Source: Oscillospiraceae bacterium
Lineage (GTDB): Bacteria; Bacillota; Clostridia; Oscillospirales; Acutalibacteraceae
Assembly (NCBI GenBank): GCA_003526845.1
Contig: DPVM01000008.1
Span: 47,593-111,592, forward strand
Reading direction: 5' to 3'
Length of the DNA: 64,000 nucleotides
In this document: piece by piece, positions 20,099-48,859 of the stretch
Layout: every line of letters starts with the position of its first letter
Numbering within the stretch: the stretch's first letter is position 1
Made by a program: the position numbers and the translations under genes
Notes under the pieces: generated by a model
What the model was told of the DNA's origin: nothing
Databases searched by the model: none
Seen by the model: only the letters and a program-made list of their open reading frames with translations

Positions 20099-20133
20099 TA
20101 AACGGCTTTGCTTATTTGCAGAGCCGTTTTTCT
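20099..20133 (+). terminator. Rho-independent terminator.
   Basis: The stem is aaacggctttgc / gcagagccgttt followed by TTTT. Confidence 0.6.
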
Positions 20134-20335
20134 TTATTGCTTTACCGCACCAAAACACAAATATCATCAAATTGTTATATTTTTAACAATAAAAATCCTC
20201 AAATTTGTTGAAATATCCGAAAATGATATAACATCGTTATTTTTTTAACAAAAACTCTTGAATACTTAAATCTATAATTTTATAATAAAGGACAGTTAAA
20301 ACTCTAATTATATATTTTTTCGGAGGTAATGAATA

Positions 20336-21712
20336 ATGGAATATCGTATTGAACATGATTCGATGGGCGAGGTTAAGGTTCCTGCCGACAAATATTGGGC
20401 AGCTCAAACCGAGCGCAGCCATGAAAATTTCAAAATCGGAGTAGGCATCGAAACAATGCCTCGTGAGATTACTCACGCATTCGGCGTTTTGAAAAAGGCT
20501 GCCGCAATTGCAAACCACAAATTGAAATCGGAAAAAATGACCGACGAAAAGCTTGCGGCAATTTCGCAGGCGTGCGATGAGGTTATGAGCGGTGCGCTCA
20601 ACGAGCATTTTCCGCTTGTTGTTTGGCAGACAGGCTCGGGCACACAGTCAAATATGAATGCCAATGAGGTTATCGCCAACAGAGGTAACGAGATTGCAGG
20701 CAAAAAGCTTCTTCATCCAAACGATGATATTAATATGAGCCAGTCGTCAAACGATACTTTCCCGACAGCAATGAGTATTGCGGCTGTTTTGGGCATCGAG
20801 GATAAGGTTTTCCCGGCTCTCGACAAGCTTGTCGCAACACTTAAAAGACTTGAGTCTGAAAATGACGATGTTGTTAAAAGCGGCAGAACTCATCTTCAGG
20901 ATGCAACGCCGATTAAGTTTTCACAGGAAATAAGCGGCTGGAGAGCGTCGCTTGAAAAGGACAGACGACTTCTTGAAATCGCTCTTCCCGAGCTTAAGGA
21001 GCTTGCACTCGGCGGCACAGCCGTAGGTACGGGACTTAACGCTCCGGCAGGCTTTGATGTTGAGGTTGCAAAGGCAGTCAGCGAAATTACAGGCAAGCAG
21101 TTCATCACTGCGCCTAACAAGTTCCACGCTCTCACCTCAAAGGATGAGATTGTATTTGCTCACGGCGCACTCAAGGCTCTTGCAGCTGACCTTATGAAGA
21201 TGGCTAACGATGTTCGTTGGCTTGCATCCGGTCCGAGAGACGGACTCGGCGAAATTAAAATTCCCGAAAACGAGCCGGGCTCGTCAATTATGCCGGGTAA
21301 GGTTAATCCGACACAGTGTGAGGCTGTTACAATGGTTGCCGTTCAGGTTATGGGCAACGATGCGGCTGTCGGCTTTGCGGCTTCTCAAGGCAATTTCGAG
21401 CTTAATGTATTTATGCCGGTCATCATTTACAATTTCACTCAGTCGGTAAGGCTTTTGAGCGAGGTTATGGTATCATTCAACGACAACTGTGCAGTAGGCA
21501 TTAAGGCTGACAGAGAAAAGATGAACCACAATCTTCACAATTCGCTTATGCTTGTTACGGCGCTCAATCCTTATATCGGATATGAAAATGCTGCAAAAAC
21601 AGCTAAAAAGGCATATAAAGACAATATTTCATTAAAGCAAGCCTGCGTTGAGCTTGGATTCTTGAGCGAGGAAAGGTTTGACGAGGTATTCCATCCCGAG
21701 CAGATGGTTTAA
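20336..21712 (+). CDS. fumC: Class II fumarate hydratase (fumarase C).
   Basis: The fumarate lyase signature GSSIMPGKVNPTQCEA is present. The N-terminus MEYRIEHDSMGEVKVPADKYWAAQTERS is typical of FumC. The protein is 458 aa. Confidence 0.9.
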   Translation: MEYRIEHDSMGEVKVPADKYWAAQTERSHENFKIGVGIETMPREITHAFGVLKKAAAIANHKLKSEKMTDEKLAAISQACDEVMSGALNEHFPLVVWQTGSGTQSNMNANEVIANRGNEIAGKKLLHPNDDINMSQSSNDTFPTAMSIAAVLGIEDKVFPALDKLVATLKRLESENDDVVKSGRTHLQDATPIKFSQEISGWRASLEKDRRLLEIALPELKELALGGTAVGTGLNAPAGFDVEVAKAVSEITGKQFITAPNKFHALTSKDEIVFAHGALKALAADLMKMANDVRWLASGPRDGLGEIKIPENEPGSSIMPGKVNPTQCEAVTMVAVQVMGNDAAVGFAASQGNFELNVFMPVIIYNFTQSVRLLSEVMVSFNDNCAVGIKADREKMNHNLHNSLMLVTALNPYIGYENAAKTAKKAYKDNISLKQACVELGFLSEERFDEVFHPEQMV

Positions 21713-21761
21713 TATTAAATTCAGGGATAAAAGGGATAAATAGGAATAGGAGAATAGCGGT

Positions 21762-22544
21762 ATGACTTATAGTTATTATCCGGGCTGCACATTGAAAACA
21801 AAGGCAAAGGACTTGGATAAATATGCAAGGCTTTCTGCAGAGGCTCTCGGTGTAACGCTTGAGGAACTGCCCGATTGGCAGTGTTGCGGCGGCGTTTATC
21901 CGTTGGCAAAGGATGAAATCGCAACCAAGCTGTCATCTGTCAGAGCCTTGAACACGGCAAAGGAGCTTAATCAAGACCTTGTTACAATGTGCTCGGCGTG
22001 CCACAATGTTATTAAGCAGGTTAACAATGATATGAAAACCGATGAGGATATTGCATCAAGGGTCAACAATTATCTTAAACTTGACGCACCATACAACGGC
22101 GAAACAAATGTTATTCATTATCTTGAACTTCTGCGAGATGTTGTGGGATTTGACGAAATCAAAAAGAAAGTTGCAAATCCGCTTAAGGGCAAAAAGATAG
22201 CCGCATACTACGGTTGTCTGCTTTTGAGACCGAGCAGGGTTATGCAAATGGACGATCCGGAAAATCCGACAATTATGGAGGATTTCATCAAGGCGCTCGG
22301 CGCAACACCGGTTTTGTATTCAATGCGTAACGAATGCTGCGGCGGCTATACAACAATCGAAAACAAAAGTATTGCAACGGCGAAGGGAAACGCTGTGCTT
22401 GAAAACGCAGTTAACAACGGCGCAGAAATGGTTATCACAGCCTGCCCTCTTTGCATGTATAATTTGAATAAAAACGCAACCGATTACGACATTCCGGTTA
22501 AGTACTTCACAGAGGTGCTTGCCGAGGCTCTCGGTGTTAAATAA
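21762..22544 (+). CDS. hdrB: HdrB-like protein with two CCG domains (heterodisulfide reductase subunit B / SdhE / TfrB C-terminus type).
   Basis: Two copies of the C-x(n)-CCG-x(n)-C-x2-C motif are present: PGCTL...WQCCGG...CSAC and YGCLL...ECCGG...CPLC. Confidence 0.8.
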   Translation: MTYSYYPGCTLKTKAKDLDKYARLSAEALGVTLEELPDWQCCGGVYPLAKDEIATKLSSVRALNTAKELNQDLVTMCSACHNVIKQVNNDMKTDEDIASRVNNYLKLDAPYNGETNVIHYLELLRDVVGFDEIKKKVANPLKGKKIAAYYGCLLLRPSRVMQMDDPENPTIMEDFIKALGATPVLYSMRNECCGGYTTIENKSIATAKGNAVLENAVNNGAEMVITACPLCMYNLNKNATDYDIPVKYFTEVLAEALGVK

Positions 22545-22554
22545 GGAGGACTCT

Positions 22555-22944
22555 ATGATTAATAATAATGAATTAAAAGAGCAAATCCTTCAAATTTCCG
22601 GAGTGAATGCTCGCAAATGTATGCGATGCGGAAAATGCACGGCAACATGTCCCTCGTTTGACAATATGGAATATCATCCGCATCAGTTTGTTTACATGGT
22701 TGAAAGCGGAAATATCGAGCCTTTGCTCAATTCAAAATCGCTTTACACCTGCCTTTCGTGCTTTGCCTGCGTTGAAAGATGCCCCCGCGGCGTCGAGCCG
22801 GCAAAAATCGTCGAGGCAACAAGGCTTGCAGTTATCCGCGAGCAGGGTGCAAACCACCTTAAACCGCAGGATATACCCGAAATTCTTGATGACGATTTGC
22901 CGCAGCAGGCTATCGTCAGTGCGTTTAGAAAATATACAAAGTAA
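22555..22944 (+). CDS. hdrC: HdrC-like 2x[4Fe-4S] ferredoxin subunit.
   Basis: The cluster-binding motifs are CMRCGKCTATCP and CLSCFACVERCP. I chose the ATG at 22555, which follows the RBS aaggagg. Confidence 0.75.
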   Translation: MINNNELKEQILQISGVNARKCMRCGKCTATCPSFDNMEYHPHQFVYMVESGNIEPLLNSKSLYTCLSCFACVERCPRGVEPAKIVEATRLAVIREQGANHLKPQDIPEILDDDLPQQAIVSAFRKYTK

Positions 22945-22959
22945 GGAGGAAAACGGCGA

Positions 22960-24954
22960 ATGCAAAGAATTGGCGTATTTGTATGTTGGTGCGGTAGCAA
23001 CATTGCAGGTACCGTGGATGTTCACAAGGTTGCCGAAACCCTGAAAAACGAAGCGGGCGTTGTTTTCTCCACCGATTATCAGTACATGTGTTCACAGGCA
23101 GGTCAGGACCTTGTCAAAAACACAATCAAAGAATATAACCTTACGGGCGTCGTAATCTGCTCGTGTTCTCCGCGTATGCACGAAAACACATTCAGAAAAG
23201 CGGCGGCATCCGTTGGACTTAACCCTTATATGGTCGAGATTGCAAACATTCGTGAGCAATGCTCGTGGATACATAAGGATATGGCGACTGCTACGGAAAA
23301 GGCAATAATCCTCGGCAGAGCCGCAATTGCAAAGGTGCATCTCAATGCACCGCTTACGGCAGGCGAAAGCCCCGTTACAAAAAGAGCCCTTGTTATCGGC
23401 GGCGGTATTGCCGGTATCCAAACTGCGCTTGATATTGCCGAGGCAGGATTTGAGGTTGATATTGTTGAAAAATCACCTACAATCGGCGGCAAAATGGCTC
23501 AAATTGATAAAACATTCCCGACTCTTGACTGTGCGGCTTGTATTTTGACACCTAAAATGGTTGAGGCGGCACAGCAGGAGAATATTAAAATTTATTCATA
23601 CAGCGAGGTTGAAGAGGTCAAGGGCTTCGTAGGCAACTTCACTGTTAAAATCAAGAAAAAAGCAAGATATGTAAACGAGGATATTTGCACCGGTTGCGGT
23701 CTTTGCACGGAAAAGTGCCCGATGAAGCGCGTACCTAATGAATTTAATCTCGGCATGGATAACCGCCATGCGATTTACATTCCGTTTGCTCAGGCTGTTC
23801 CGAAGGTTGCAACAATCGACCCGACAGCCTGCATAAAACTTAAAACGGGCAAGTGCGGCCTTTGTTCAACAGTCTGCGAGGCTAAGGCTATCAATTATGA
23901 TGCTAATGACGAGTTCGTTGAGGCGAAATACGGCGCAATCGTTGTTGCAACCGGATTCAATCCGATTTCCGTTGAAAAATTTGACGAATTTGCGTATTCT
24001 CAAAGCCCCGATGTCGTTACCTCGCTTGAATACGAAAGACTTATGAACGCGGCAGGACCGACAAGCGGCACTCTTTTAAGACCGTCAGACCATAAGCATC
24101 CGAAAACAATCGTTTTTGTGCAGTGCGTAGGTTCCCGTTGTGACGGTGTTGACAGCAAGGGTAAACCGTATTGCTCAAAGGTTTGCTGTATGTATACCGC
24201 AAAACACGCAATGCTTACCCGTGAAAAATACCCCGACACGGATGTTTATGTATTTTATATTGATGTTCGTACCCCCGGCAAAAACTTTGACGAGTTTTAT
24301 CGCAGAGCTGTCGAGGAATACGGCGTTCACTATATCAAGGGTATGGTCGGCAAGGTAGTTCCCGAAAACGGAAAACTTAAAGTTCAAGCCTCCGACCTTC
24401 TTGCAAATGAGCAGCTTCATATCGACGCCGACATGGTGGTTCTTGCCGCCGCTGTCGAGCCTGATAAAAGCGCAAGACACCTTGCAACAATGCTCACCGC
24501 ATCTATGGATACAAATGATTTCTTCACAGAGGCTCACCCAAAACTTCGTCCTGTCGAATCACCGACAGCAGGCGTGTTCCTTTCGGGTATGTGCCAAGGT
24601 CCGAAAGATATTCCCGAAACCGTTTCGCAGGCATCTGCCGCGGCGGCAAAGGTTATTGGACTTCTTGTTAAGGATAAACTCACCTGCAACCCGTGCGTTG
24701 CACACAGCGACGAAATGCTTTGCAACGGCTGCTCAAGCTGTGAAAAGGTTTGCCCTTACGGCGCAATTACCTATGAAGAAAAAGAGTTCAGAATGCCCGA
24801 CAGAACTACGGCAATTCGCCGTGTCGCAAGCGTTAACCCTGCTGTTTGTCAGGGTTGCGGCGCATGTACGGTTGCCTGCCCGAGCGGCGCTATGGATTTG
24901 AACGGCTTTTCTAACAGACAAATTATGGCGGAGGTAGATGCGATATGCAGATAG
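22960..24954 (+). CDS. hdrA: HdrA-like FAD-containing iron-sulfur flavoprotein, the bifurcating-type heterodisulfide reductase subunit A.
   Basis: The FAD Rossmann fold reads ALVIGGGIAGIQTALDIAEAGFEVDIVEKSPTIGGKM. There are several 4Fe-4S motifs (CTGCGLCTEKCP, CGLCSTVCE, CNGCSSCEKVCP, CQGCGACTVACP). An N-terminal Cys cluster is present. The protein is 664 aa. Confidence 0.85.
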   Translation: MQRIGVFVCWCGSNIAGTVDVHKVAETLKNEAGVVFSTDYQYMCSQAGQDLVKNTIKEYNLTGVVICSCSPRMHENTFRKAAASVGLNPYMVEIANIREQCSWIHKDMATATEKAIILGRAAIAKVHLNAPLTAGESPVTKRALVIGGGIAGIQTALDIAEAGFEVDIVEKSPTIGGKMAQIDKTFPTLDCAACILTPKMVEAAQQENIKIYSYSEVEEVKGFVGNFTVKIKKKARYVNEDICTGCGLCTEKCPMKRVPNEFNLGMDNRHAIYIPFAQAVPKVATIDPTACIKLKTGKCGLCSTVCEAKAINYDANDEFVEAKYGAIVVATGFNPISVEKFDEFAYSQSPDVVTSLEYERLMNAAGPTSGTLLRPSDHKHPKTIVFVQCVGSRCDGVDSKGKPYCSKVCCMYTAKHAMLTREKYPDTDVYVFYIDVRTPGKNFDEFYRRAVEEYGVHYIKGMVGKVVPENGKLKVQASDLLANEQLHIDADMVVLAAAVEPDKSARHLATMLTASMDTNDFFTEAHPKLRPVESPTAGVFLSGMCQGPKDIPETVSQASAAAAKVIGLLVKDKLTCNPCVAHSDEMLCNGCSSCEKVCPYGAITYEEKEFRMPDRTTAIRRVASVNPAVCQGCGACTVACPSGAMDLNGFSNRQIMAEVDAICR

Positions 24955-25391
24955 AAGAAAACAAAGAATTCAGACCTAAAATCGTTGCCTTCTGCTGTAA
25001 CTGGTGCTCATACGCAGGCGCAGACCTTGCAGGCACAAACCGTCTTAACTATCCTGCCGATATTAAGATTATCCGTGTTCCGTGCTCCTGCCGTGTAAAC
25101 CCGATGTTTATACTCAGAGCATTTCAGCGCGGTGCAGACGGCGTTATTATGTGCGGTTGCCATCCCGGCGACTGCCACTATACAACAGGAAATTATTATG
25201 CAAGACGAAGAATGACTCTCCTTTTCTCAATGCTTGATTATCTCGGCATAGAGAAGGGCAGAACAAGAGTAGAATGGGTTTCTGCCGCAGAGGGTCAAAA
25301 GTTCGCCGAAACAATGAACAGCTTTGTTGAAACAATAATTGCCCTCGGTGAAAACAAAAGATTGGAGGATTTGAGATGCAAGACAAAATGA
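24945..25391 (+). CDS. mvhD: MvhD/FlxD-like subunit, the methyl-viologen-reducing hydrogenase delta-subunit family.
   Basis: The motif IVAFCCNWCSYAGADLAG ... VPCSCRV ... IMCGCHPGDCHY is present. The protein is 148 aa and overlaps the hdrA stop. Confidence 0.8.
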   Translation: MQIEENKEFRPKIVAFCCNWCSYAGADLAGTNRLNYPADIKIIRVPCSCRVNPMFILRAFQRGADGVIMCGCHPGDCHYTTGNYYARRRMTLLFSMLDYLGIEKGRTRVEWVSAAEGQKFAETMNSFVETIIALGENKRLEDLRCKTK

Positions 25392-26356
25392 TTTCTCGTG
25401 CGAAAGAACTCCTCCTCGACGGCACCGTAAACAGAGTTCTCGGCTGGAAAACGGGCGAGTTTGAATATGATATTACTCCGGCAGTGTTCACCACCGCACA
25501 GGAGCTTGAAAACGATTTTGTTTACAACAGCTTTGCGGCTGCAAACCTTTCGAAATATCTTGTAAAGGAAAGCAGAAAGGAAGGCAAAATTCTCGTATTT
25601 CTCAAGCCTTGCGATTCATACAGCTTTCAGGAGCTTATGAAAGAGCACAGAGTTATAAGAGAAAATGTTTACATCATCGGCATTGCATGCTACGGCAAGA
25701 CAGATATTGAAAAAATCAAAGAAAAGGGAATAAGCGGCATTTCAAGCGTCGGCGAGGACGATACAAATATCGTTGTCGATACGATTTATGACGGCACCGT
25801 CAAATTCCCGAAATATGAGGTTATGGCAGAGCGTTGCCTCTCCTGCAAGAGCAAAAAGGTTGTTGTTTATGACGAGCTTATCGGCGAAAACGGCGAGGTT
25901 AACGAGGATTGCAACCGCTTTGACTTGGTTGCAAAGCTCGAGGCAATGACTCCCGACGAGCGTTTCGCTTTTTGGCAAAACGAACTTTCAAAATGCATCC
26001 GTTGCAACGCATGCAGAAATGTTTGCCCTGCCTGCACATGTGAAAAATGTGTGTTTGACAACGACAATTCGGGTGTTGCGCAAAAGGCGGCAGCTAACAG
26101 TTTTGAGGAAAATATGTTCCATATTATCCGCGCATTCCATGTTGCCGGCAGATGCACAGACTGCGGCGAATGCTCACGCGTGTGCCCACAGCATATTCCG
26201 CTTCACCTGCTCAACCGCAAATTCATCAAGGATGCAAACGAGCTTTACGGTGAATATCAGGCAGGCGCAGATATGGAAACAAAGCCGCCTCTTGTTAACT
26301 TTACATATGACGATTGCGAGCCAAGCGTTGTTTATGAAAGAGGAGGTGCCGAATAA
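25376..26356 (+). CDS. Iron-sulfur subunit with an FrhB-like N-terminus and a C-terminal 2x[4Fe-4S] domain (FlxC-like).
   Basis: The cluster motifs are CIRCNACRNVCPACTC and CTDCGECSRVCP. It overlaps both upstream and downstream genes. Confidence 0.55.
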   Translation: MQDKMISRAKELLLDGTVNRVLGWKTGEFEYDITPAVFTTAQELENDFVYNSFAAANLSKYLVKESRKEGKILVFLKPCDSYSFQELMKEHRVIRENVYIIGIACYGKTDIEKIKEKGISGISSVGEDDTNIVVDTIYDGTVKFPKYEVMAERCLSCKSKKVVVYDELIGENGEVNEDCNRFDLVAKLEAMTPDERFAFWQNELSKCIRCNACRNVCPACTCEKCVFDNDNSGVAQKAAANSFEENMFHIIRAFHVAGRCTDCGECSRVCPQHIPLHLLNRKFIKDANELYGEYQAGADMETKPPLVNFTYDDCEPSVVYERGGAE

Positions 26357-27375
26357 TGTATAAAATCGCATTTGGTAAAATTTCGGCGCTCTTTAACGCA
26401 ATTTCATCGGTTGAAAAACTTTATGTTCCGACCGATAAGGACGATATTGCGGTTTTTGCCGAATATAAGGACGGCGTTGAGCTTACTCAAAAGCTTAACA
26501 CTAACCGCTCGGCTAAAGATTTTTTCTTCCCACAGACAGAAAATCTTTACGATGTAAAAATGAAAGACAAAAAAATCGAGATTACAGATACAAGAGAAGA
26601 GTGTGAGGATTTCGTTATCTTCGGCGTAAGAGCGTGCGATGTCCGTTCGTTCTCGATTCTTGACAAGGTGTATCTTGCAGACCCGATTGATTCCTATTAT
26701 AAAAACAGACGCGACCACGGCACGATTATTTCGCTTGCCTGCGGCAGACCCGAGGAAACCTGTTTTTGCCAAAGTTTCGGCATAAATGCGGCAGACCCCG
26801 AGGGCGATGTCAAGGCTTGGAAAATCGGCGACGAACTTTATTTGCAAGGCGCAACAGACAAAGGCAATGCATTGCTCGAAAAGGTTTCCTCGGTTCTTGA
26901 ATCGGCAGACGAAAAAGCTGTTGACGATGCAAAAAGCGCTATTAACGCAGTTATGAAAAAGCTTCCGCTTGCAAAGGTAAGTTTTGAGCATATGAAGGAC
27001 AACGATTTGCTTGACTATTTCAACAGCGACAAGTGGTCCGGCCTTTCTGAGGCTTGCCTCGGTTGCGGCACATGCACTTTCGTTTGCCCGACTTGTCAGT
27101 GCTACGATATTCGCGAGTTTGATACCGGAAACGGTATTAAAAAATTCAGATGCTGGGACAGCTGTATGTATTCCGACTTCACGAAGATGGCTCACGGCAA
27201 TCCGCGTACAACTCAACTTCAGCGCTTCAGACAAAGATTTATGCACAAGCTTGTGTATTTCCCCGATAACAATAACGGCGAATTCGGTTGCGTCGGCTGC
27301 GGCAGATGCCTTGCAAAATGCCCGATTTCAATGAATATTGTTAAGGTGGCAAAGGCATTGGAGGTGAATGTGTGA
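26356..27375 (+). CDS. AsrA / sulfhydrogenase-beta / FlxB-like iron-sulfur subunit.
   Basis: The cluster motifs are CLGCGTCTFVCPTCQC and CVGCGRCLAKCP. Its 339-aa length matches AsrA/HydB-type proteins. Confidence 0.55.
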   Translation: MYKIAFGKISALFNAISSVEKLYVPTDKDDIAVFAEYKDGVELTQKLNTNRSAKDFFFPQTENLYDVKMKDKKIEITDTREECEDFVIFGVRACDVRSFSILDKVYLADPIDSYYKNRRDHGTIISLACGRPEETCFCQSFGINAADPEGDVKAWKIGDELYLQGATDKGNALLEKVSSVLESADEKAVDDAKSAINAVMKKLPLAKVSFEHMKDNDLLDYFNSDKWSGLSEACLGCGTCTFVCPTCQCYDIREFDTGNGIKKFRCWDSCMYSDFTKMAHGNPRTTQLQRFRQRFMHKLVYFPDNNNGEFGCVGCGRCLAKCPISMNIVKVAKALEVNV

Positions 27376-28202
27376 TGAATAACGAAACATTAATTCCGGT
27401 AATCGGCGAGGTTACCGATATAAGAGTTGACACACCCGATGTCAAGACCTTCAGAGTCACTGCGTTGGGCGGCGGAAAAGCGTTTGAGCATATCCCCGGT
27501 CAGTGTGCAATGCTCTCAATCCCGGGTGCAGGCGAAGCAATGTTTTCAATCACTTCCTCACCAACTACAAAGGATTATATGGAATTCAGCATCAAAAAGT
27601 GCGGTTGCCTCACAACCTGGCTCCACGAAATGGAGGTAGGTCAGCAAATCACTATCAGAGGTCCGTACGGCAACGGTTTCCCGGTTGATACCGAGTTTGT
27701 CGGCAAGGATTTGCTTTTCATTGCCGGCGGTATCGGTCTTGCTCCGCTCCATTCCGTAATCAATTACTGCCGTGCCAACAGAGAAAAATACGGCAAGATT
27801 GATATTGTTTACGGCTCACGCTCGGCAGATGATCTTGTTGATTATCAGGAGATTATCGACGAATGGTGCAAAGAGGACGGCATCAATGTTTATCTCACCA
27901 TCGACAGAGAGCAGGAGGGTTGGGACGGTCATGTCGGTTTTGTTCCCAACTATGTTAAGGAACTCGGCTTTGATACAAACAAAACGGCTGTAATCTGCGG
28001 TCCGCCTATTATGATTAAGTTTACACTTACGGGTCTTGTTGAACTTGGATTTGACAAAACCCAGGTTTACACCACAATGGAGCTTAAAATGAAATGCGGT
28101 GTCGGCAAATGCGGCAGATGCAACATCGGCGATAAATACGTTTGTAAAGACGGTCCTGTTTTCCGCTGTGACCAGCTTGACGAAATGCCGACCGAGTATT
28201 AA
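27372..28202 (+). CDS. FAD/NAD(P)H-binding oxidoreductase with a C-terminal [2Fe-2S] (AsrB / HydG / PyrK / FlxA-like). It is the likely NADH entry point.
   Basis: The NAD-binding glycine motif reads DLLFIAGGIGLAPL, with an FNR-like fold. The C-terminal cluster motif is CGVGKCGRCNIGDKYVCKDGPVF. The protein is 276 aa. Confidence 0.7.
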   Translation: MMNNETLIPVIGEVTDIRVDTPDVKTFRVTALGGGKAFEHIPGQCAMLSIPGAGEAMFSITSSPTTKDYMEFSIKKCGCLTTWLHEMEVGQQITIRGPYGNGFPVDTEFVGKDLLFIAGGIGLAPLHSVINYCRANREKYGKIDIVYGSRSADDLVDYQEIIDEWCKEDGINVYLTIDREQEGWDGHVGFVPNYVKELGFDTNKTAVICGPPIMIKFTLTGLVELGFDKTQVYTTMELKMKCGVGKCGRCNIGDKYVCKDGPVFRCDQLDEMPTEY

Positions 28203-28217
28203 TAGGAGGATGCGTAG

Positions 28218-28895
28218 ATGGAAAAAGAAATGGTAAATATCTATTTGTTCGGCAAAAAATACGAAGTGCCATCAAATCTTACAATAATGAACGCTATGGA
28301 ATACGCAGGCTATCAGCTTAAAAGAGGTTGCGGATGCAGAAACGGCTTCTGCGGCGCCTGCGCAACAATTTACAGGGTTAAGGGCGACAGAGAGCTTAAA
28401 GCTTGCCTTGCATGCCAAACAAAGGTTGAAAACGATATGTATATCGCAACTCTTCCGTTCTTCCCGCTTATCAAGCAACCGTATGATATTGAAAAAGTTA
28501 AGCCGACAGAGCAGATTATGATGCAGCTTTATCCCGAGATTTATGCATGCGTCGGCTGTAATGCCTGCACAAATGCGTGCACACAGGGTCTTAATGTTAT
28601 GCAATATATTGCATATGCTCAAAGAGGCGAATACGAAAAGTGTGCCGAGGAGAGTTTTGACTGCGTAATGTGCGGCGTTTGTTCGTCGCGTTGCCCGGCA
28701 GGAATCAGTCATCCGCAGGTTGCATTGCTTGCAAGACGACTCAACGGCAAATATCTTGCTCCCGAAAGCAAGCATTTGACAGAAAGAGTTCAGGAAATCA
28801 AGGACGGCACATTTGAGGAACTTATTCAAAACCTTATGCAAAAGCCGCTTGACGAGATTAAAGAGCTTTATAACAACAGAGAGATTGAGAAGTAA
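28218..28895 (+). CDS. Succinate dehydrogenase / fumarate reductase iron-sulfur subunit-like protein (FrdB/SdhB-like, 2Fe-2S plus two [4Fe-4S]/[3Fe-4S] sites).
   Basis: The 2Fe-2S motif is CGCRNGFCGACA...C. The C-terminal cluster motifs are CVGCNACTNAC and CVMCGVCSSRCP. The RBS is aggagg. Confidence 0.7.
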   Translation: MEKEMVNIYLFGKKYEVPSNLTIMNAMEYAGYQLKRGCGCRNGFCGACATIYRVKGDRELKACLACQTKVENDMYIATLPFFPLIKQPYDIEKVKPTEQIMMQLYPEIYACVGCNACTNACTQGLNVMQYIAYAQRGEYEKCAEESFDCVMCGVCSSRCPAGISHPQVALLARRLNGKYLAPESKHLTERVQEIKDGTFEELIQNLMQKPLDEIKELYNNREIEK

Positions 28896-28907
28896 GGAGG
28901 TGCCGAT

Positions 28908-30521
28908 ATGTATAATAAAGAAATGCTTGATTCAATGAAAAAAGTTGCCGAGGCAAGAGAGCGAAACACATATTTCGAGCCGCGCAGAATGACAGCGGAC
29001 GAAAAGGATACTCTTCTCGCAACTTTCCACCCCGATTACAAGGAGGATCAGTTCAGCGTCCTTAAAATCGGTGCCAATGCCGGCGAAAAAGTGCCATGCG
29101 AGCTTGCCGAGCTTTTGCAGGCTCATTCAAGAATTAAACCCGACAGCGTGGACCTTTCAAATCCCGATTACGATGTTGATGTGCTTATTATCGGCGGCGG
29201 CGGTGCAGGTGCATCTGCGGCTATCGAGGCTGATAACAACGGCGCAAAAACCATGATTGTAACAAAGCTTCGTATGGGCGACGCAAACACAATGATGGCA
29301 GAGGGCGGTATTCAGGCTGCCGACAAGCCAAACGATTCGCCTGCAATCCACTATATCGACGCTTTCGGCGGCGGTCACTTTGCCGCAAAGCCGGAGCTGC
29401 TTTACAAGCTCGTTACCGAGGCTCCCGAGGCTATTCAGTGGCTCAACAATTTGGGCGTTGAATTTGACAAGGCACCCGACGGCACAATGATTACAACTCA
29501 CGGCGGCGGAACATCAAGAAAAAGAATGCACGCCGCAAAGGACTATTCGGGTGCAGAGATTATGCGTACTCTTCGCGACGAGGTTCAAAACAGACAAATT
29601 CCGATTGTTGATTTTACAGCCGCAATTGAGATTATTAAGGACAGCGAAGGCAAGGCAGCAGGCGCAGTTCTTATGAATATGGAAACAAGCGAGCTTCTTG
29701 TTGCAAAGGCTAAAACAGTCATTATCGCGACAGGCGGCGCAGGCAGACTCCATTATCAGGGTTTCCCGACATCAAACCACTACGGTGCAACTGCCGACGG
29801 TCTTATTTTAGGTTACAGAGCCGGTGCAAAACTCCTTTATGCCGACACTCTTCAGTATCACCCGACAGGTGCGGCTTATCCGGAGCAGATTTTCGGTGCT
29901 CTTGTTACGGAGAAAGTTCGTTCGCTCGGCGCAAAGCTTGTCAATGTAAACGGCGAAGTATTTATGCATCCGCTTGAAACCCGTGATGTTTCTGCCGCAT
30001 CCATTATTCGTGAATGTACGGCAAGAGGCAACGGCGTTCATACGGACGACGGAGTCGGCGTTTGGCTCGACACCCCGATGATTGAGATTAAGGGCGGCGA
30101 GGGCACGATTGAAAAGAGAATTCCTGCCATGATGAGAATGTTCGGCAAATACGGCATTGATATTCGCAAGGAGCCTATTCTCGTTTATCCAACACTTCAC
30201 TATCAAAACGGCGGTCTTAACATTTCGGCAGACGGTATGACAAATATCGAAAACCTTTATGTTGCAGGCGAGGCAGTCGGCGGCATCCACGGCAGAAACA
30301 GACTTATGGGCAACTCGTTGCTTGATATTATTGTTTTCGGCAGAAATGCAGGAAAAACCGCATCCGCAAAATCAAAAGAGGTTGAGCTCGGCGAGCTTAC
30401 TCTTAAGCATGTTGATGATTTTGAGGAGCAAATCAAATCTGCCGGAATCGAAACGGATGTTGTTTCTCCGAAACTTCTTCCGCGCTATACTCACGGCAAC
30501 CCTCGTTTTGAGGTAAAATAA
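28908..30521 (+). CDS. Fumarate reductase / succinate dehydrogenase flavoprotein-like subunit (FrdA/SdhA/NadB family).
   Basis: The FAD Rossmann fold reads DVDVLIIGGGGAGASAAIEA. Substrate and active-site blocks RKRMHAAKDYSGAEI and LQYHPTG are present. The C-terminus has GNSLLD. The protein is 537 aa. Confidence 0.8.
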   Translation: MYNKEMLDSMKKVAEARERNTYFEPRRMTADEKDTLLATFHPDYKEDQFSVLKIGANAGEKVPCELAELLQAHSRIKPDSVDLSNPDYDVDVLIIGGGGAGASAAIEADNNGAKTMIVTKLRMGDANTMMAEGGIQAADKPNDSPAIHYIDAFGGGHFAAKPELLYKLVTEAPEAIQWLNNLGVEFDKAPDGTMITTHGGGTSRKRMHAAKDYSGAEIMRTLRDEVQNRQIPIVDFTAAIEIIKDSEGKAAGAVLMNMETSELLVAKAKTVIIATGGAGRLHYQGFPTSNHYGATADGLILGYRAGAKLLYADTLQYHPTGAAYPEQIFGALVTEKVRSLGAKLVNVNGEVFMHPLETRDVSAASIIRECTARGNGVHTDDGVGVWLDTPMIEIKGGEGTIEKRIPAMMRMFGKYGIDIRKEPILVYPTLHYQNGGLNISADGMTNIENLYVAGEAVGGIHGRNRLMGNSLLDIIVFGRNAGKTASAKSKEVELGELTLKHVDDFEEQIKSAGIETDVVSPKLLPRYTHGNPRFEVK

Positions 30522-30594
30522 AAGTTAATCATTTACCCACGGGCAAAACGGCAAGAGCTGTTTTGCCCGATTTCATCAAAGAATAGAGGATTTT

Positions 30595-31809
30595 ATGGAA
30601 CTGTTTAACGGAATACTCAGTATTCACGCAGTTAGTTTTTTAACCCTCAGTGTATTTGCAATTGCGGCATTGGGCTACATTTTGGGACGAATTACTGTCA
30701 AGGGCGTTGATTTGGGCACGGCAGGCGTGTTTGTAATTGCCCTTCTTTACGGCTGTTTTTGCTACAGCAATTTGACGCACGAGCTTACAATGACGGATGA
30801 AACCTTCGTCAAGGAGGCATTAAAAAATGTCGATAACATAGGGCTTGTGCTGTTCGTTACTTCGGTCGGCTTTATTGCAGGACCGACCTTTTTCAAAAAT
30901 TTGAAAAAGAATTTTAAATCGTATGTTTGCCTCGGACTTATAATTATTTTGTCCGCAAGTATTGTTTGCGTCATTTGTATTATGCTCGGTAAGGGCGATA
31001 CAGTCCACGAACATGAGGAGTTTAAAGCAATCCTTGTCGGTCTGCTGTCGGGCGCGCTCACGAGTACACCGGCATTCTCCGCGGCAAAGGATGCCGTAGG
31101 ACCGCAGTATGAGGATTTTGTTTCCGTAGGCTACGGCATTGCATATTTGTTCGGCGTTATAGGTGTTGTTCTTTTTGTTCAGCTTGTTCCCAAATTTGCA
31201 AAAGCAAATATGGAAGAAGAGGTCAAAAAAATTACCGCCGACAGCGACGGCGGCAGTAAAAGAATTTATAACGGCAAGCTTATCGAATTTGATTCGTTCG
31301 GCATAATGCCGTTTGCGCTTGCAGCGGTCCTTGGCATGATTATCGGTTCAATCAGCTACAAGGGCTTTTCGCTCACGACAACGGGCGGCTGTATTCTCGT
31401 TTCGCTTGTTATGGGTCATTTCGGCAGAATAGGAAAAATCAGCATAATGCCGAAGGGGAGCACACTTCGTGTGTTCCGTGAGCTTGGGCTTATGTTTTTC
31501 CTTATCGGTGCCGGAATCTCGGGCGGCGCAAAATTCGTTGAGGTTTTCAACGCAAAATATCTTTTCTACGGCGTGTTGATGACACTCATTCCAATGATTA
31601 TCGGCTTTCTGTTTGCAAAATATGTTCTCAAATTGCCGCTCCTTAACAATCTCGGCTCGATTACCGGCGGTATGACCTCAACACCTGCGCTCGGCACACT
31701 CATTCAGGTTTCGGGCACGGAGGATATTGCAACGGCATACGCCGCAACATATCCCATCGCGCTCATATCCGTAGTAATAGCCGCAAAGCTTATAGTTATG
31801 TTTTGTTAA
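30595..31809 (+). CDS. AAE-family (AspT/YidE/YbjL/SucE-type) transporter without RCK domains.
   Basis: There are two Asp-Al_Ex repeats. The N-terminus reads GYILGRITVKGVDLGTAGVFVIALLYG. The hallmark GGMTSTPALG is in the second repeat. The protein has about 10 TM segments. Confidence 0.75.
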   Translation: MELFNGILSIHAVSFLTLSVFAIAALGYILGRITVKGVDLGTAGVFVIALLYGCFCYSNLTHELTMTDETFVKEALKNVDNIGLVLFVTSVGFIAGPTFFKNLKKNFKSYVCLGLIIILSASIVCVICIMLGKGDTVHEHEEFKAILVGLLSGALTSTPAFSAAKDAVGPQYEDFVSVGYGIAYLFGVIGVVLFVQLVPKFAKANMEEEVKKITADSDGGSKRIYNGKLIEFDSFGIMPFALAAVLGMIIGSISYKGFSLTTTGGCILVSLVMGHFGRIGKISIMPKGSTLRVFRELGLMFFLIGAGISGGAKFVEVFNAKYLFYGVLMTLIPMIIGFLFAKYVLKLPLLNNLGSITGGMTSTPALGTLIQVSGTEDIATAYAATYPIALISVVIAAKLIVMFC

Positions 31810-31840
31810 ATTTTGTTTATAAACGATTTGGGGGAACGAG

Positions 31841-32558
31841 CTTGAACAACTTATTTATACAAGGAGTACTGTTTGAATGGAATGAAATAGAGCCAAACAG
31901 CTACATCAGGACTATTGAGTCCTTGCGTGATGTAGAAAAAATCGAATTTCAAAGCCCCGTTTCGCTGTTTGTAGGCGAAAACGGAACGGGAAAATCGACA
32001 TTGCTTGAGGCAATTGCCGTTGCACACGGTTTTAATCCCGAGGGCGGCACAAAAAACTATGTTTTTTCAACTTATGATTCTCATTCCGAATTATGCGATG
32101 CAATACGAATTGCAAAGGGCTACAGAAAAGAAAAATGGGGATATTTTTTGAGAGCGGAAAGTTTTTATAATGTTGCCACCCAAGAAGAAAAATATGCCGA
32201 CATTGCGCACCCGTCAATGCAATATCACAAAAAGTCACACGGAGAAAGTTTTTTGGATTTGGCACAAGACAATATTAAGTCAAACGGCTTGTATTTGCTC
32301 GACGAGCCGGAGGCAGCCCTTTCTCCGCAAAGGCAGTTGACATTGCTGACGCAGATATACAAATGCGCAAATGATGGCGCGCAATTCATTATAGCTACAC
32401 ATTCTCCGATTTTGTTGGGTATTCCCAATGCTCAAATATTTTGCTTTGACAACAGCAAAATACATACATGCACCTACGAGGAAACCGACAGCTATAAGAT
32501 TACCGAAATGTTTATAAACAATCGCAAAAGCTTCCTCCAAAAACTCTTGGATGAATAA
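31841..32558 (+). CDS. Standalone AAA_21 / ABC-like ATPase (COG3910-type predicted ATPase).
   Basis: Walker A (GENGTGKSTLLEAIA), Walker B (LYLLDEPEAALSPQRQ) and an H-loop (ATHSP) are present. I called a TTG start at 31841 after a GGGGGA RBS. The ORF track begins at a TTG at 31803. Confidence 0.55.
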
Positions 32559-33986: not shown

Positions 33987-34076
33987 GGCGCAGCGGGTGG
34001 GATTTGAACCCACGGGCGCACGAAACGCACGATGGATTTCGAGTCCATGCCGTTATGACCTCTTCGGTACCGCTGC
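33986..34076 (-). tRNA. tRNA-Ser(CGA), 91 nt, type II with a long variable arm.
   Basis: The reverse complement is GCAGCGGTACCGAAGAGGTCATAACGGCATGGACTCGAAATCCATCGTGCGTTTCGTGCGCCCGTGGGTTCAAATCCCACCCGCTGCGCCA. The 7-bp acceptor stem is GCAGCGG/CCGCTGC. The anticodon stem is ATGGA/TCCAT with loop CTCGAAA (anticodon CGA). The T-arm reads GTGGGTTCAAATCCCAC. The 3' CCA is encoded. Confidence 0.8.
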
Positions 34077-34189: not shown

Positions 34190-34801
34190 ATGGTTGCAAT
34201 CATTGATTACGGTGCCGGAAATCTGCAAAGCGTCAAAAAAGCGCTTGATTTTCTTGGATACGAAAGCGAAATTACTATGGACAGAGAAAAAATTCTCTCT
34301 GCCTCCCATGTCATTCTTCCCGGTGTAGGCTCGTTCGGCGATGCCATGGCATCAATCAGGGAGCGTGGACTTGAGGACATAATTAAACAGGCGGCGTCGG
34401 GAGAAAAACATTTTCTCGGCATTTGCCTCGGTCTTCAGCTTATGTTTGAAAAGAGCGACGAAACTCCCGGTGTTGAGGGACTCGGCATTTTTAAGGGTGA
34501 TATTGTCAAAATTCCGAGCGAAAACGGACTTAAGGTTCCGCATATTGGTTGGAATTCAATCAACCTGAAGCAAACCGACGGCATTTTCAACGGTATTAAG
34601 GACGGCAGTTATTTCTATTTCGTTCATTCGTATTATCTTAAGAACGCCGACGCGGATGTTGTTGCGGCAACGGCTCAATACGGCGTTGAAATTGAATGTG
34701 CAATTCAAAAGGGCAGGGTTTGCGCAACACAGTTCCACCCCGAAAAAAGCAGTGAAACGGGACTTCGACTGCTCAAAAACTTTATGGAAGCGGAGGATTG
34801 A
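34190..34801 (+). CDS. hisH: Imidazole glycerol phosphate synthase glutaminase subunit HisH (class I glutamine amidotransferase).
   Basis: The N-terminus [23 protein letters not shown] is typical. The catalytic Cys lies in GICLGLQL and the His in FHPEKS. Confidence 0.85.
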
Positions 34802-34804
34802 GCC

Positions 34805-35563
34805 ATGTATGCAAAAAGAATTATCCCTTGCCTTGATGTCAAAAACGGCAGAGTTGTAAAGGGCGTTTCATTTGTAGATTTGAGAGATGCAGGCGACCCG
34901 GTTGAGTGCGCCGCGGCGTATGACAGGCAGGGCGCGGACGAGCTTGTTTTGTTGGATATTACAGCTACTCACGAGGGCAGGAGCACGATGGTTGACATTG
35001 TGTCGCGCGTTGCAAACACAGTGTTTATTCCGTTTACTGTCGGCGGCGGCATCAAAACCGTTGACGATTTTAAGGAGCTTTTGCGTGCAGGAGCTGACAA
35101 AATCAGCGTTAATTCAGCGGCTGTAAGAAATCCCGATTTAATCAACGAGGCGGCGTATAAATTCGGCTCGCAGTGCGTTGTGTGTGCGATTGATGCAAAA
35201 AGGCGCGAAAACGGCGGCTGGGAGGTATATCTCAACGGCGGCAGAATCCCGACGGGTATTGATGCCGTTGAATGGGCGATTGAGGCAGAGCGCAGAGGCG
35301 CAGGCGAAATTTTGCTCACTTCCATGGACTGCGATGGTCAGAAAAACGGCTACGATATAGAACTTACCGCCGTTGTCAGCGAAAATGTAGGCATTCCCGT
35401 TATTGCATCGGGCGGTGCAGGCAAGGCAGAGCATTTTTACGATGCTTTCACAAAGGGCAAGGCCGACGCTGTGCTTGCGGCAAGCCTCTTCCATTTTAAC
35501 GAACTTCCTGTTCCCGAGCTGAAAAAATATTTAAACGAAAAGGGAATACCCGTTAGGCTTTGA
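34805..35563 (+). CDS. hisF: Imidazole glycerol phosphate synthase cyclase subunit HisF.
   Basis: The sequence is near-canonical HisF throughout, including [36 protein letters not shown] and PVIASGGAG. Confidence 0.9.
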
Positions 35564-48059: not shown

Positions 48060-48859
48060 AATCATCTCTCCTTTTTTCTAATGATTAACACTATTTGCAG
48101 CAAATTATTAAAACATAATAGCCGTTTTCGTGCCTAATTGCACAAGGAGAAGAACGCCCAATCTTTTGATTTTTGAGCGCAAAGTTCCCTTGTGAACGAA
48201 CAATTCATTTATATTTATACCAAATAAATATTTAAAAGTCAATAGAATTTTAAATATTTTTTAATAATTTATTAATTCAATATTATTTATGAATAAATAC
48301 AGTTATATTCATTATTATAATATTAATAACATATTATGTCATCTGATATTCTTTGCTTGGTTGCAGATACGGAGAAATTTTGAACTGCTACTTAAAAAAG
48401 ATATAAACATTTTGCAAAAAATTATTGAAAAAGCTGTTTGCAACGACTGACTAATAACACACTTCTACATGTTGTTTTTATCAAATGATAATCGCAGCCG
48501 AAACACAACATACGGACACTGTAAAGGCAATGAGTTGACCGAATTGAACAGCTGTAAAGTCTAACAGCATTACATTTTACTCATTTCAAAATGTGTAAAA
48601 TAAATCCGCAAACAAAATGTAAAATAATTATTAACAAATTGTAAATTTTAATCAGCGGATAATCAACATTCGGCTGCTAATTTGACGGAAAAATGCGAAA
48701 TTTGCAACCTTTGGGCAAATTTGACTATACATTCGCCCATTTTGTGAACAAATTATGTAAAAAAATAATTGACTTTTGACGGTTTGATATGTTTTAATAT
48801 ATATGCGTGATATGCGCTATTGTGTTCAACTGTTTGTGAACACACTTGTTCCTCAGTCT

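Follow-up and report, generated by a model that had tools for sequence, protein, structure and literature searches.

Two proposals in the literature come closest to the system considered here. Pseudoclostridium thermosuccinogenes carries a "succinate operon" (CDQ83_RS03365-03315) whose genes are all highly expressed and co-regulated, and for which NADH-driven fumarate reduction coupled to ferredoxin reduction has been proposed (Koendjbiharie et al. 2020, PMC7282089). For tubeworm symbionts and Thioflavicoccus mobilis, the products of tfrAB, korABCD, and flxABCD-hdrABC have been proposed to act as a complex (Rubin-Blum 2019, PMC6315080), and the flx-hdr-tfrAB complex is restated as a hypothesis by Mitchell 2024 (PMC11636981) and in a 2026 survey (PMC13147460). 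Here, we analyzed a stretch of 64,000 nucleotides (nt) from an Oscillospiraceae bacterium (GenBank assembly GCA_003526845.1, contig DPVM01000008.1, positions 47,593 to 111,592), referred to below as the window, which carries at positions 20336-31809 eleven open reading frames (ORFs), all on the + strand, in the order fumC-hdrB-hdrC-hdrA-mvhD-flxC-flxB-flxA-frdB-frdA-AAE transporter. These eleven genes form one real and well-conserved operon, and we consider it moderately probable that this operon is devoted to the reductive C4 branch, as a quinone-independent, cytoplasmic pathway in which NADH-driven fumarate reduction would be bifurcated to ferredoxin.

A preliminary description of this DNA, made from its letters alone, had reported eleven co-directional, tightly packed genes with overlapping starts; their coordinates, gaps, and overlaps were all verified and the domain identities of the eleven genes hold in profile searches, with three minor corrections: hdrC most likely does not start at TTG 22519, the flavoprotein has no SdhA/FrdA C-terminal domain, and the transporter has none of the TrkA_C domains of canonical AAE proteins. 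The genes and their products, with lengths in amino acids (aa), are listed below; Fe-S stands for iron-sulfur and FAD for flavin adenine dinucleotide.

20336 to 21712, + strand: fumC, 458-aa fumarate hydratase of class II (708.6 bits with TIGR00979, cut-off 664.75)
21762 to 22544, + strand: HdrB-like CCG protein, 260 aa, with 10 Cys and both CCG motifs complete
22555 to 22944, + strand: HdrC-like 2x[4Fe-4S] ferredoxin subunit, 129 aa, with two CxxCxxCxxxC motifs and eight Cys
22960 to 24954, + strand: HdrA flavoprotein, full length at 664 aa, with Fe-S domains (E 4.5e-208 to 5ODC_A)
24945 to 25391, + strand: MvhD/FlxD, 148 aa, 2Fe-2S adaptor to HdrA (FlpD 186 bits over the full profile; VhuD 131 bits)
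25376 to 26356, + strand: FlxC-like Fe-S protein, 326 aa, with C-terminal Fer4 dicluster families, FdhB/FrhB-like
26356 to 27375, + strand: FlxB-like Fe-S protein, 339 aa, of AsrA/sulfhydrogenase-beta type (Fer4_22 105 bits; ShyB 188 bits)
27372 to 28202, + strand: FlxA-like NAD(P)H-binding FAD/2Fe-2S subunit, 276 aa, of AsrB/HydG type (FAD_binding_6, NAD_binding_1, DHODB_Fe-S_bind)
28218 to 28895, + strand: FrdB/SdhB-like Fe-S subunit, 225 aa, with 2Fe-2S and two full CxxCxxCxxxC motifs
28908 to 30521, + strand: FrdA-like flavoprotein, 537 aa, with predicted non-covalent FAD (FAD_binding_2 230 bits)
30595 to 31809, + strand: AAE-family (AspT/YidE/YbjL) transporter, 404 aa, with about nine hydrophobic segments and Asp-Al_Ex matched twice

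Within this unit, neighboring genes are separated by -16 to +73 nt, with overlaps at four junctions (hdrA/mvhD, mvhD/flxC, flxC/flxB, and flxB/flxA), and a GGAGG-like ribosome-binding site lies 5' of the start codon in 11/11 genes. When the window is compared with P. thermosuccinogenes by gene order and by gene lengths from published locus tags and coordinates, order and lengths agree for 10 of the 11 genes. Both operons run, in the same order, from a fumarate hydratase gene through seven Flx-Hdr genes and two fumarate reductase genes to a tail gene; hdrB measures 783 nt in both, the Fe-S gene 675 nt in P. thermosuccinogenes and 678 nt in the window, the flavoprotein gene 1602 and 1614 nt, and the span from hdrA through flxA 5347 and 5243 nt, respectively. 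The tail gene differs, encoding an 82-aa hypothetical protein in P. thermosuccinogenes and the AAE transporter in the window. The same operon type was reportedly proposed in a 2019 preprint by Koendjbiharie and van Kranenburg (10.20944/preprints201912.0288.v1). The gene combination, which had been taken as undescribed on first reading of the window, is therefore already published for P. thermosuccinogenes (PMC7282089), with a related cluster in tubeworm symbionts (PMC6315080).

In the scheme that we propose, FumC would convert malate into fumarate, and a soluble two-subunit FrdA-like/FrdB-like enzyme would reduce fumarate to succinate. NADH would presumably enter the chain at the FlxA-like FAD/2Fe-2S subunit and be oxidized there, and its electrons would then travel via two Fe-S proteins, FlxB and FlxC, and via MvhD/FlxD to HdrA, whose FAD is presumed to be the bifurcating site. 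There, the pair would be split, with one electron moving uphill via the ferredoxin domains of HdrA itself to ferredoxin and the other downhill from HdrC to the CCG clusters of HdrB, then to FrdB, FrdA, and fumarate. The net reaction would thus be 2 NADH + fumarate + 2 Fd(ox, one-electron) -> 2 NAD+ + succinate + 2 Fd(red), which, as calculated from textbook potentials (NADH -320 mV, fumarate +30 mV, ferredoxin about -450 mV), corresponds to approximately -40 kJ/mol. The AAE transporter would move the C4-dicarboxylate product or substrate over the membrane, and the reduced ferredoxin could provide extra energy via Rnf or be vented as H2. We infer the single complex, the direct transfer from HdrB to FrdB without a free thiol, the bifurcation, the use of NADH over NADPH, and the substrate of the transporter.

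The assignment of fumarate as the substrate hinges on the 537-aa flavoprotein. Its best curated match is the TfrA model NF004900 (343 bits, cut-off 718), covering positions 6-427 of the 546 in the model, and it scores 271 bits against both the NadB model TIGR00551 (cut-off 452) and the SdhA/FrdA model (cut-off 567). Alignment with FrdA, SdhA, and NadB of E. coli MG1655 places FrdA residues H232, T244, E245, R248, R287, H355, and R390 opposite H318, T334, E335, R338, R359, H431, and R465 of the flavoprotein, and among 97 family members, some as little as 41 % identical, six of these seven catalytic residues never vary, whereas T334 is Ser in 4. The position of NadB Glu121, a residue that contacts the amino group of aspartate, is occupied by Gly199 in the flavoprotein and by Gly, Ala, or Ser, never Glu, in 97/97 sequences. 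The covalent-FAD site, His44 in FrdA, corresponds to Asn127 and is Asn in all 97 sequences; a histidine at this site lifts the flavin potential to a level at which succinate can be oxidized, and Asn is seen there in enzymes that only reduce fumarate. The flavoprotein has no PF02910 (Succ_DH_flav_C) domain, its alignment stopping about 110 residues before the C-terminus of FrdA, SdhA, and NadB, and it bears an N-terminal extension of 87 aa. An AF2 model built on a 32-sequence alignment reached a pLDDT of 94.3, extension included; its top fold match is E. coli FrdA (E 9e-36, TM 0.71), the soluble Shewanella flavocytochrome c3 (Fcc3) fumarate reductase is also among the best matches, and NadB comes at rank 33. 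Because the catalytic residues are kept, Glu121 is absent, and the fold matches FrdA, we conclude that the protein is a putative fumarate-reducing enzyme with non-covalent FAD and not an aspartate oxidase.

A different substrate is nevertheless worth considering, since one NCBI record calls a close homologue "L-aspartate oxidase" (others read "FAD-dependent oxidoreductase"), the curated flavoprotein models all score under their cut-offs, and the FAD_binding_2 family also covers enoate reductases such as that for urocanate, urocanate reductase being itself among the PDB matches of the flavoprotein (E 1.8e-29). The enzyme would then be an L-aspartate oxidase or a reductase of some other unsaturated acid, and the adjacency of fumC would be incidental. 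We regard this as very improbable, given that the two His/Arg pairs that bind carboxylate in fumarate reductases show no variation, nor does their proton-donor Arg, that an FrdB-type partner and fumC are the kept neighbors, and that no nadA or nadC was found near the operon among the window ORFs. The L-aspartate oxidase identity, which the preliminary description had named as a possible outcome of profile searches, is ruled out by the NadB score, far under its cut-off, and by the composition of the Glu121 column. A reversed reaction, in which the oxidation of succinate and ferredoxin would be confurcated to NADH, is scarcely credible in our view: Flx-Hdr is thought to be reversible in Desulfovibrio vulgaris (PMC10084766), but the covalent-FAD histidine is replaced in every member, and both the fumC/exporter context and the succinate-producing habit of P. 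thermosuccinogenes (PMC7282089) point to reduction.

The partner of the flavoprotein, the 225-aa Fe-S protein, gave weak TfrB and SdhB (dhsB) matches, under cut-off, in single-sequence searches, whereas its family profile aligned with E. coli FrdB in hhalign at 97.1 % (E 5e-11) over 152 columns spanning all three cluster sites. Cys40, Cys45, Cys48, and Cys66 align with the 2Fe-2S ligands of FrdB, Cys111, Cys114, Cys117, and Cys159 with the 4Fe-4S ligands, and Cys121, Cys149, and Cys155 with the 3Fe-4S ligands, whereas an additional Cys152 completes the second CxxCxxCxxxC motif. Across 87 relatives, 11 of the 12 ligand cysteines are strictly invariant, the twelfth (Cys48) being replaced by Gly in one sequence; because Cys152 is an extra invariant cysteine, a second 4Fe-4S cluster is predicted in place of the 3Fe-4S cluster. 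By its alignment with FrdB, the protein is of Sdh type and not the unrelated ferredoxin that had at first been allowed for. A structure model of this subunit was set aside owing to its shallow alignment and low pLDDT (60.7); Foldseek matched its N-terminal 2Fe-2S domain only, as NuoG-type.

How electrons might reach this pair is suggested by the TfrB model, which is matched in three successive parts by three products of the operon: positions 19-92 by the 225-aa protein, 121-219 by HdrC, and 265-487 by HdrB, so that the modules can form one electron chain to a fumarate-reducing flavoprotein. The HdrB-like protein scores nearly equally with the HdrB model (152 bits) and with the SdhE model of methylmenaquinol:fumarate reductase (143 bits), both under cut-offs, and its ten cysteines (Cys9, 41, 42, 77, 80, 152, 192, 193, 228, and 231) are kept in 61/61 relatives, bar one alignment gap at Cys9. 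In fumarate reductases of type E (SdhABE), the CCG protein SdhE partners SdhB, and this pairing of a CCG protein with SdhB also argues for direct transfer between the corresponding subunits here. We put forward, as a tentative and somewhat doubtful extension, that the ten soluble proteins may assemble into a FlxABCD-HdrABC-FrdAB super-complex in which the non-cubane CCG clusters of HdrB relay the high-potential electron directly to FrdB/FrdA, with no disulfide being reduced.

The same electrons could instead be carried by a diffusible thiol/disulfide couple, a DsrC-like protein or a small thiol, between two enzymes: Flx-Hdr would bifurcate to ferredoxin and a disulfide, and a TfrAB-like thiol:fumarate reductase would re-oxidize the thiol. 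TfrA is indeed the best family match of the flavoprotein, and HdrB has both CCG motifs intact, as is typical of disulfide reductases. On the other hand, the 225-aa subunit lacks the CCG domain, which is the thiol-oxidizing site in TfrB, and HdrB is the sole CCG protein in the operon, which means that the thiol would be both formed and used at one site. Moreover, no DsrC-like or small carrier gene is present in the operon, where all gaps are at most 73 nt, and neither dsrC nor an alcohol dehydrogenase gene (adh) occurs in or adjoining it among window ORFs and domain matches. With a single CCG protein, an Fe-S subunit devoid of CCG, and no room for a carrier gene, a thiol shuttle appears quite improbable, and direct transfer from HdrB/HdrC to FrdB is favored.

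The input side of the proposed chain is made up of recognizable Hdr and Flx subunits. Residues 3-662 of HdrA align with residues 5-649 of HdrA of Methanothermococcus wolfeii (5ODC_A), a crystallized bifurcating enzyme, and the protein scores 800 bits with the HdrA2 model and retains all ferredoxin-type domains. The HdrC models give 63 and 58 bits, under cut-offs, with the 129-aa protein, whose start is most likely ATG 22555; this start is preferred to the TTG codon 22519, which was set aside, because gene callers on four other contigs use the equivalent of ATG 22555. Over its C-terminal ~110 aa, the FlxC-like protein is similar to FdhB from three Hdr-Fdh complexes (9T1S, 7BKB, and 8RVU; E 1.8e-26 to 1.4e-20); its N-terminal half had no match in the same searches, so only the dicluster half is recognizable. 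The FlxB-like protein matches the beta subunit of sulfhydrogenase I (PDB 9NEZ_B, E 1.9e-43), and the FlxA-like protein scores 228 bits with PRK08345 and 201 bits with AsrB, the Flx subunits thus matching the sulfhydrogenase beta/gamma-type proteins that define Flx (PMC10084766). The fumarase at the head of the operon shows the Pfam domains Lyase_1 and FumaraseC_C, and no hydrogenase large subunit was found in the locus. A PDB search returned no solved structure of the whole complex, only generic relatives of single subunits. None of the ten enzymes (0/10) has a 19-residue window with a Kyte-Doolittle mean of at least 1.6, which rules out a membrane-bound quinol:fumarate reductase, since no anchor segment is available. 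The soluble, anchor-free fumarate reductase wired to Flx-Hdr-MvhD that had been read from the letters is thereby borne out at the level of sequence, and a plausible bifurcation passes the same kind of test.

The operon is not restricted to the window. A scan of one genome per species confirmed at least 580 relatives of the flavoprotein, and synteny was derived from the best 80 of these, 79-88 % identical, which belong to Eubacterium coprostanoligenes ATCC 51222, Guopingia tenuis, and metagenome-assembled genomes (MAGs) labelled Oscillospiraceae, Christensenellaceae, Anaerotruncus, and similar. In 56/56 loci with enough upstream sequence, the nine core genes hdrB-hdrC-hdrA-mvhD-flxC-flxB-flxA-frdB-frdA are present, collinear, and co-directional, answering the synteny question raised in the preliminary description, and in 47 of 53 loci fumC is the gene directly 5' of hdrB. 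Word-based searches among 90 %-identity clusters returned at least 8000 matches to the flavoprotein and 7315 to the Fe-S subunit, including Clostridium leptum and Solibaculum mannosilyticum in the protein collection. The exact window protein is recorded in 70 blocks of the assembly collection, contigs labelled human gut among them, and its neighbors there are unchanged. The operon is thus widespread in human and animal gut Clostridia, which is new here. Cultured carriers include Eubacterium coprostanoligenes ATCC 51222, Guopingia tenuis NSJ-63, Solibaculum mannosilyticum, and C. leptum; a literature search on the fermentation products of E. coprostanoligenes returned nothing useful.

More distant relatives of the flavoprotein, represented at 41-58 % identity and traced to contigs, reveal a different range of partners. 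In a metagenomic locus with a 54 %-identical flavoprotein (L087), the linkage to Hdr persists, the genes encoding a 2-oxoacid:ferredoxin oxidoreductase, HdrA, MvhD, HdrC, HdrB, an Fe-S protein, and the flavoprotein; no Flx genes were found within the 10 kb of its contig, both ends of which are truncated. Three further loci (L084-L086:9366-12891), from a proteobacterial, cytochrome-c-containing background, carry an Fe-S/flavoprotein pair, 46 % identical, and after it a NuoF-like subunit (Complex1_51K and NADH_4Fe-4S), but no Hdr, which suggests a three-subunit soluble NADH:fumarate reductase without Hdr. Two others (L088 and L090) are stand-alone Fe-S/flavoprotein pairs, and in L089 the Fe-S protein and flavoprotein are fused. 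Since relatives pair with Hdr, pair with a NuoF-like subunit, or stand alone, the FrdAB-like pair would therefore be a module fed by several input modules, with Hdr as one recurrent partner.

This modularity gives weight to a simpler alternative, a non-bifurcating soluble NADH:fumarate reductase in which Flx-Hdr would be a mere wire carrying the four electrons of two NADH to fumarate and no ferredoxin would be reduced. The 46 %-identical pair next to a NuoF-like subunit makes simple NADH-linked versions plausible, and a soluble five-subunit NADH-dependent fumarate reductase has been characterized in Hydrogenobacter thermophilus (Miura 2008, as related in PMC13147460). We nonetheless hold this alternative to be unlikely. 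In the window, HdrA is full length, none of its ferredoxin-type domains is missing, and MvhD is kept as well; seven accessory genes would be costly as a wire when one NuoF-like subunit suffices elsewhere. In addition, P. thermosuccinogenes no longer formed succinate under a high-H2 headspace, according to earlier work as summarized in PMC7282089, an effect that fits ferredoxin coupling and would be unexpected for a purely NADH-linked enzyme.

Several observations weigh against bifurcation to ferredoxin with fumarate as the acceptor. In known HdrABC enzymes, the HdrB clusters are the terminal substrate site and not a relay, so that direct transfer to FrdB is an assumption on our part. The family models for the FrdAB-like pair and for the Hdr/Flx subunits all score under curated equivalog cut-offs, the synteny set of 80 consists of close relatives (flavoprotein at least 79 % identical), so that the synteny partly reflects shared descent, and the FrdAB pair, judging from its NuoF-like, stand-alone, and fused relatives, appears to have no intrinsic need of Hdr. 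Flx-Hdr, presented at first as a known bifurcating architecture, is described as "proposed" to bifurcate, on genetic evidence only (PMC10084766), so that this part of the preliminary description was overstated, and expression of tfrAB in the tubeworm symbionts diverged from that of the rest of the cluster (PMC11636981). Our literature search for a purified or assayed enzyme of this kind found genomic and transcriptomic proposals only, with no assay, purification, or structure, consistent with the earlier statement that no such system had been biochemically characterized.

The last gene of the operon varies among relatives. The AAE protein is the only hydrophobic product among the eleven; it scores 150 bits with TIGR01625 (cut-off 72) in two stretches, corresponding to the duplication domains, and is devoid of the central TrkA_C domains of canonical AAE members of ~550 aa. 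It is presumed to be a C4-dicarboxylate exporter or exchanger. The gene after the flavoprotein encodes an AAE protein in 48 loci and a small hydrophobic protein in 17, with both in 0 and neither in 8. The small protein, of ~90-105 aa (typically ~95 aa), is found for example in Guopingia tenuis (L021:11699-11986) and 16 further loci, and also 3' of stand-alone or fused Fe-S/flavoprotein genes (L090:6042-6362 and L089:7449-7682); in Pfam, it gave a PQ-loop hint only, which was non-significant (E 0.022). In size and position, it resembles the 82-aa hypothetical protein of P. thermosuccinogenes, suspected by its authors to be a succinate transporter (PMC7282089), and it possibly serves as a small transporter for dicarboxylates, interchangeable with AAE.

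Two flanking sites offer hints as to the boundaries of the unit.

20100 to 20129, + strand: terminator-like hairpin, a 12-bp stem followed by a T run, which ends the upstream DUF3877 gene and marks the 5' limit of the unit
20258 to 20286, + strand: promoter-like site, TTGAAT, a 17-nt spacer, and TATAAT (10 of 12 consensus matches), in the AT-rich region 5' of fumC

Both are weak boundary hints only, because the promoter and terminator consensus scans gave site numbers in the region that were not above the shuffle control. An Rfam search found no RNA element within or 5' of the operon. An AAA ATPase ORF (31803-32558) was considered as a twelfth gene and ruled out, given that gene callers start it 32 nt past the AAE stop and its function is unrelated; this ORF, next after the transporter, probably lies outside the unit. 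The product of this ORF (+ strand) is an AAA_15/AAA_21 ATPase with a weak likeness to PtuA-type anti-phage ATPases (49 bits, far below cut-off), and the ORF is split in two on two other contigs of the same species, so it may be decaying.

Elsewhere in the window, a cobalamin riboswitch (RF00174, 59 bits, 719-901, + strand) lies directly 5' of an 887-aa ORF (1150-3813, + strand) whose sole Pfam match is a C-terminal fibronectin type III domain and which may encode a B12-regulated surface protein or a B12-capturing protein. Two divergent giant ORFs, of 2531 aa (40470-48065, - strand) and 2170 aa (48952-55464, + strand), have no Pfam match at E 1e-5, and the former recurs, conserved in length (2529-2541 aa), on other gut contigs from the same species. 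A tRNA gene (33989-34076, - strand) is located between an acyltransferase gene and hisH/hisF-like genes (34190-35563).

Taken at the strength given above, the gene content suggests that this human-gut Clostridia host probably makes succinate while generating reduced ferredoxin. If true, the operon would represent a new class among the few known enzymes of flavin-based electron bifurcation and would explain how fumarate can serve as an energy-yielding electron sink in quinone-free Clostridia. If the super-complex is true, an HdrABC-type bifurcating enzyme would for the first time have a terminal acceptor other than a thiol, namely fumarate, and the human and animal gut would harbor a major, uncounted, quinone-independent energy-conserving route to succinate. 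The lineages carrying the operon number thousands in gut Clostridia and include the Eubacterium coprostanoligenes group, C. leptum, Solibaculum, Guopingia, and Christensenellales-type MAGs, and this abundance would have a bearing on gut succinate production, hydrogen balance, and cross-feeding, provided that the reaction is true. The cultured carriers make the hypothesis directly testable, and P. thermosuccinogenes is genetically tractable (PMC9044749).

The locus shares features with each of several known systems and departs from all of them. With E. coli FrdABCD/SdhCDAB, it shares the catalytic residues and fold of the flavoprotein and a homologous Fe-S subunit with the same cluster order, whereas it lacks the anchor, the covalent-FAD histidine, and the C-terminal flavoprotein domain, and a fourth Cys in its Fe-S subunit turns the 3Fe-4S site into a predicted 4Fe-4S site. 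The soluble thiol:fumarate reductase TfrAB of Methanothermobacter, reportedly described by Heim et al. in 1998 with CoM-SH and CoB-SH as the donor, is another relative; to our knowledge, these thiols are not expected in Clostridia. Both systems are soluble, and the 2Fe-2S domain, 4Fe-4S dicluster, and two CCG domains that are fused in TfrB are borne by three proteins in the window. However, the CCG domains of the window reside on the separate HdrB of a full HdrABC, the 225-aa protein matches TfrB positions 19-92 only, and the flavoprotein scores under the TfrA cut-off and lacks the C-terminal domain covered by the model. TfrAB in the strict sense was therefore ruled out (343 bits against 718, and no CCG on the 225-aa protein).

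FlxABCD-HdrABC of D. vulgaris (Ramos et al. 2015; PMC10084766) has the same seven subunit types as the window. It differs in its proposed acceptor, the DsrC disulfide, and in an adjoining alcohol dehydrogenase gene, dsrC and adh both being missing from the window operon, where the gene order is reversed (hdrBCA-flxDCBA) and followed by the FrdAB pair. The tubeworm cluster likewise places a two-subunit "TfrAB-like" fumarate reductase amid Flx-Hdr genes, as a proposed bifurcating complex, and shares with the metagenomic relative L087 the same arrangement, including the 2-oxoacid:ferredoxin oxidoreductase. It serves autotrophic CO2 fixation by the reverse tricarboxylic acid cycle in Gammaproteobacteria, with a 2-oxoglutarate:ferredoxin oxidoreductase and with neither fumC at its head nor AAE at its tail, whereas the window belongs to a fermentative gut Clostridia bacterium. 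The P. thermosuccinogenes operon, finally, comes from a thermophile and is backed by transcriptomic and physiological evidence, whereas the host of the window is from the human gut. The idea itself is thus not new, and the window operon is a gut-borne case of a system already proposed; what is new here is the residue-level support for fumarate as the likely substrate and against NadB, the predicted 4Fe-4S cluster at the 3Fe-4S site, the choice at the tail between an AAE transporter and a small hydrophobic protein, and the apparent modularity of the FrdAB pair.

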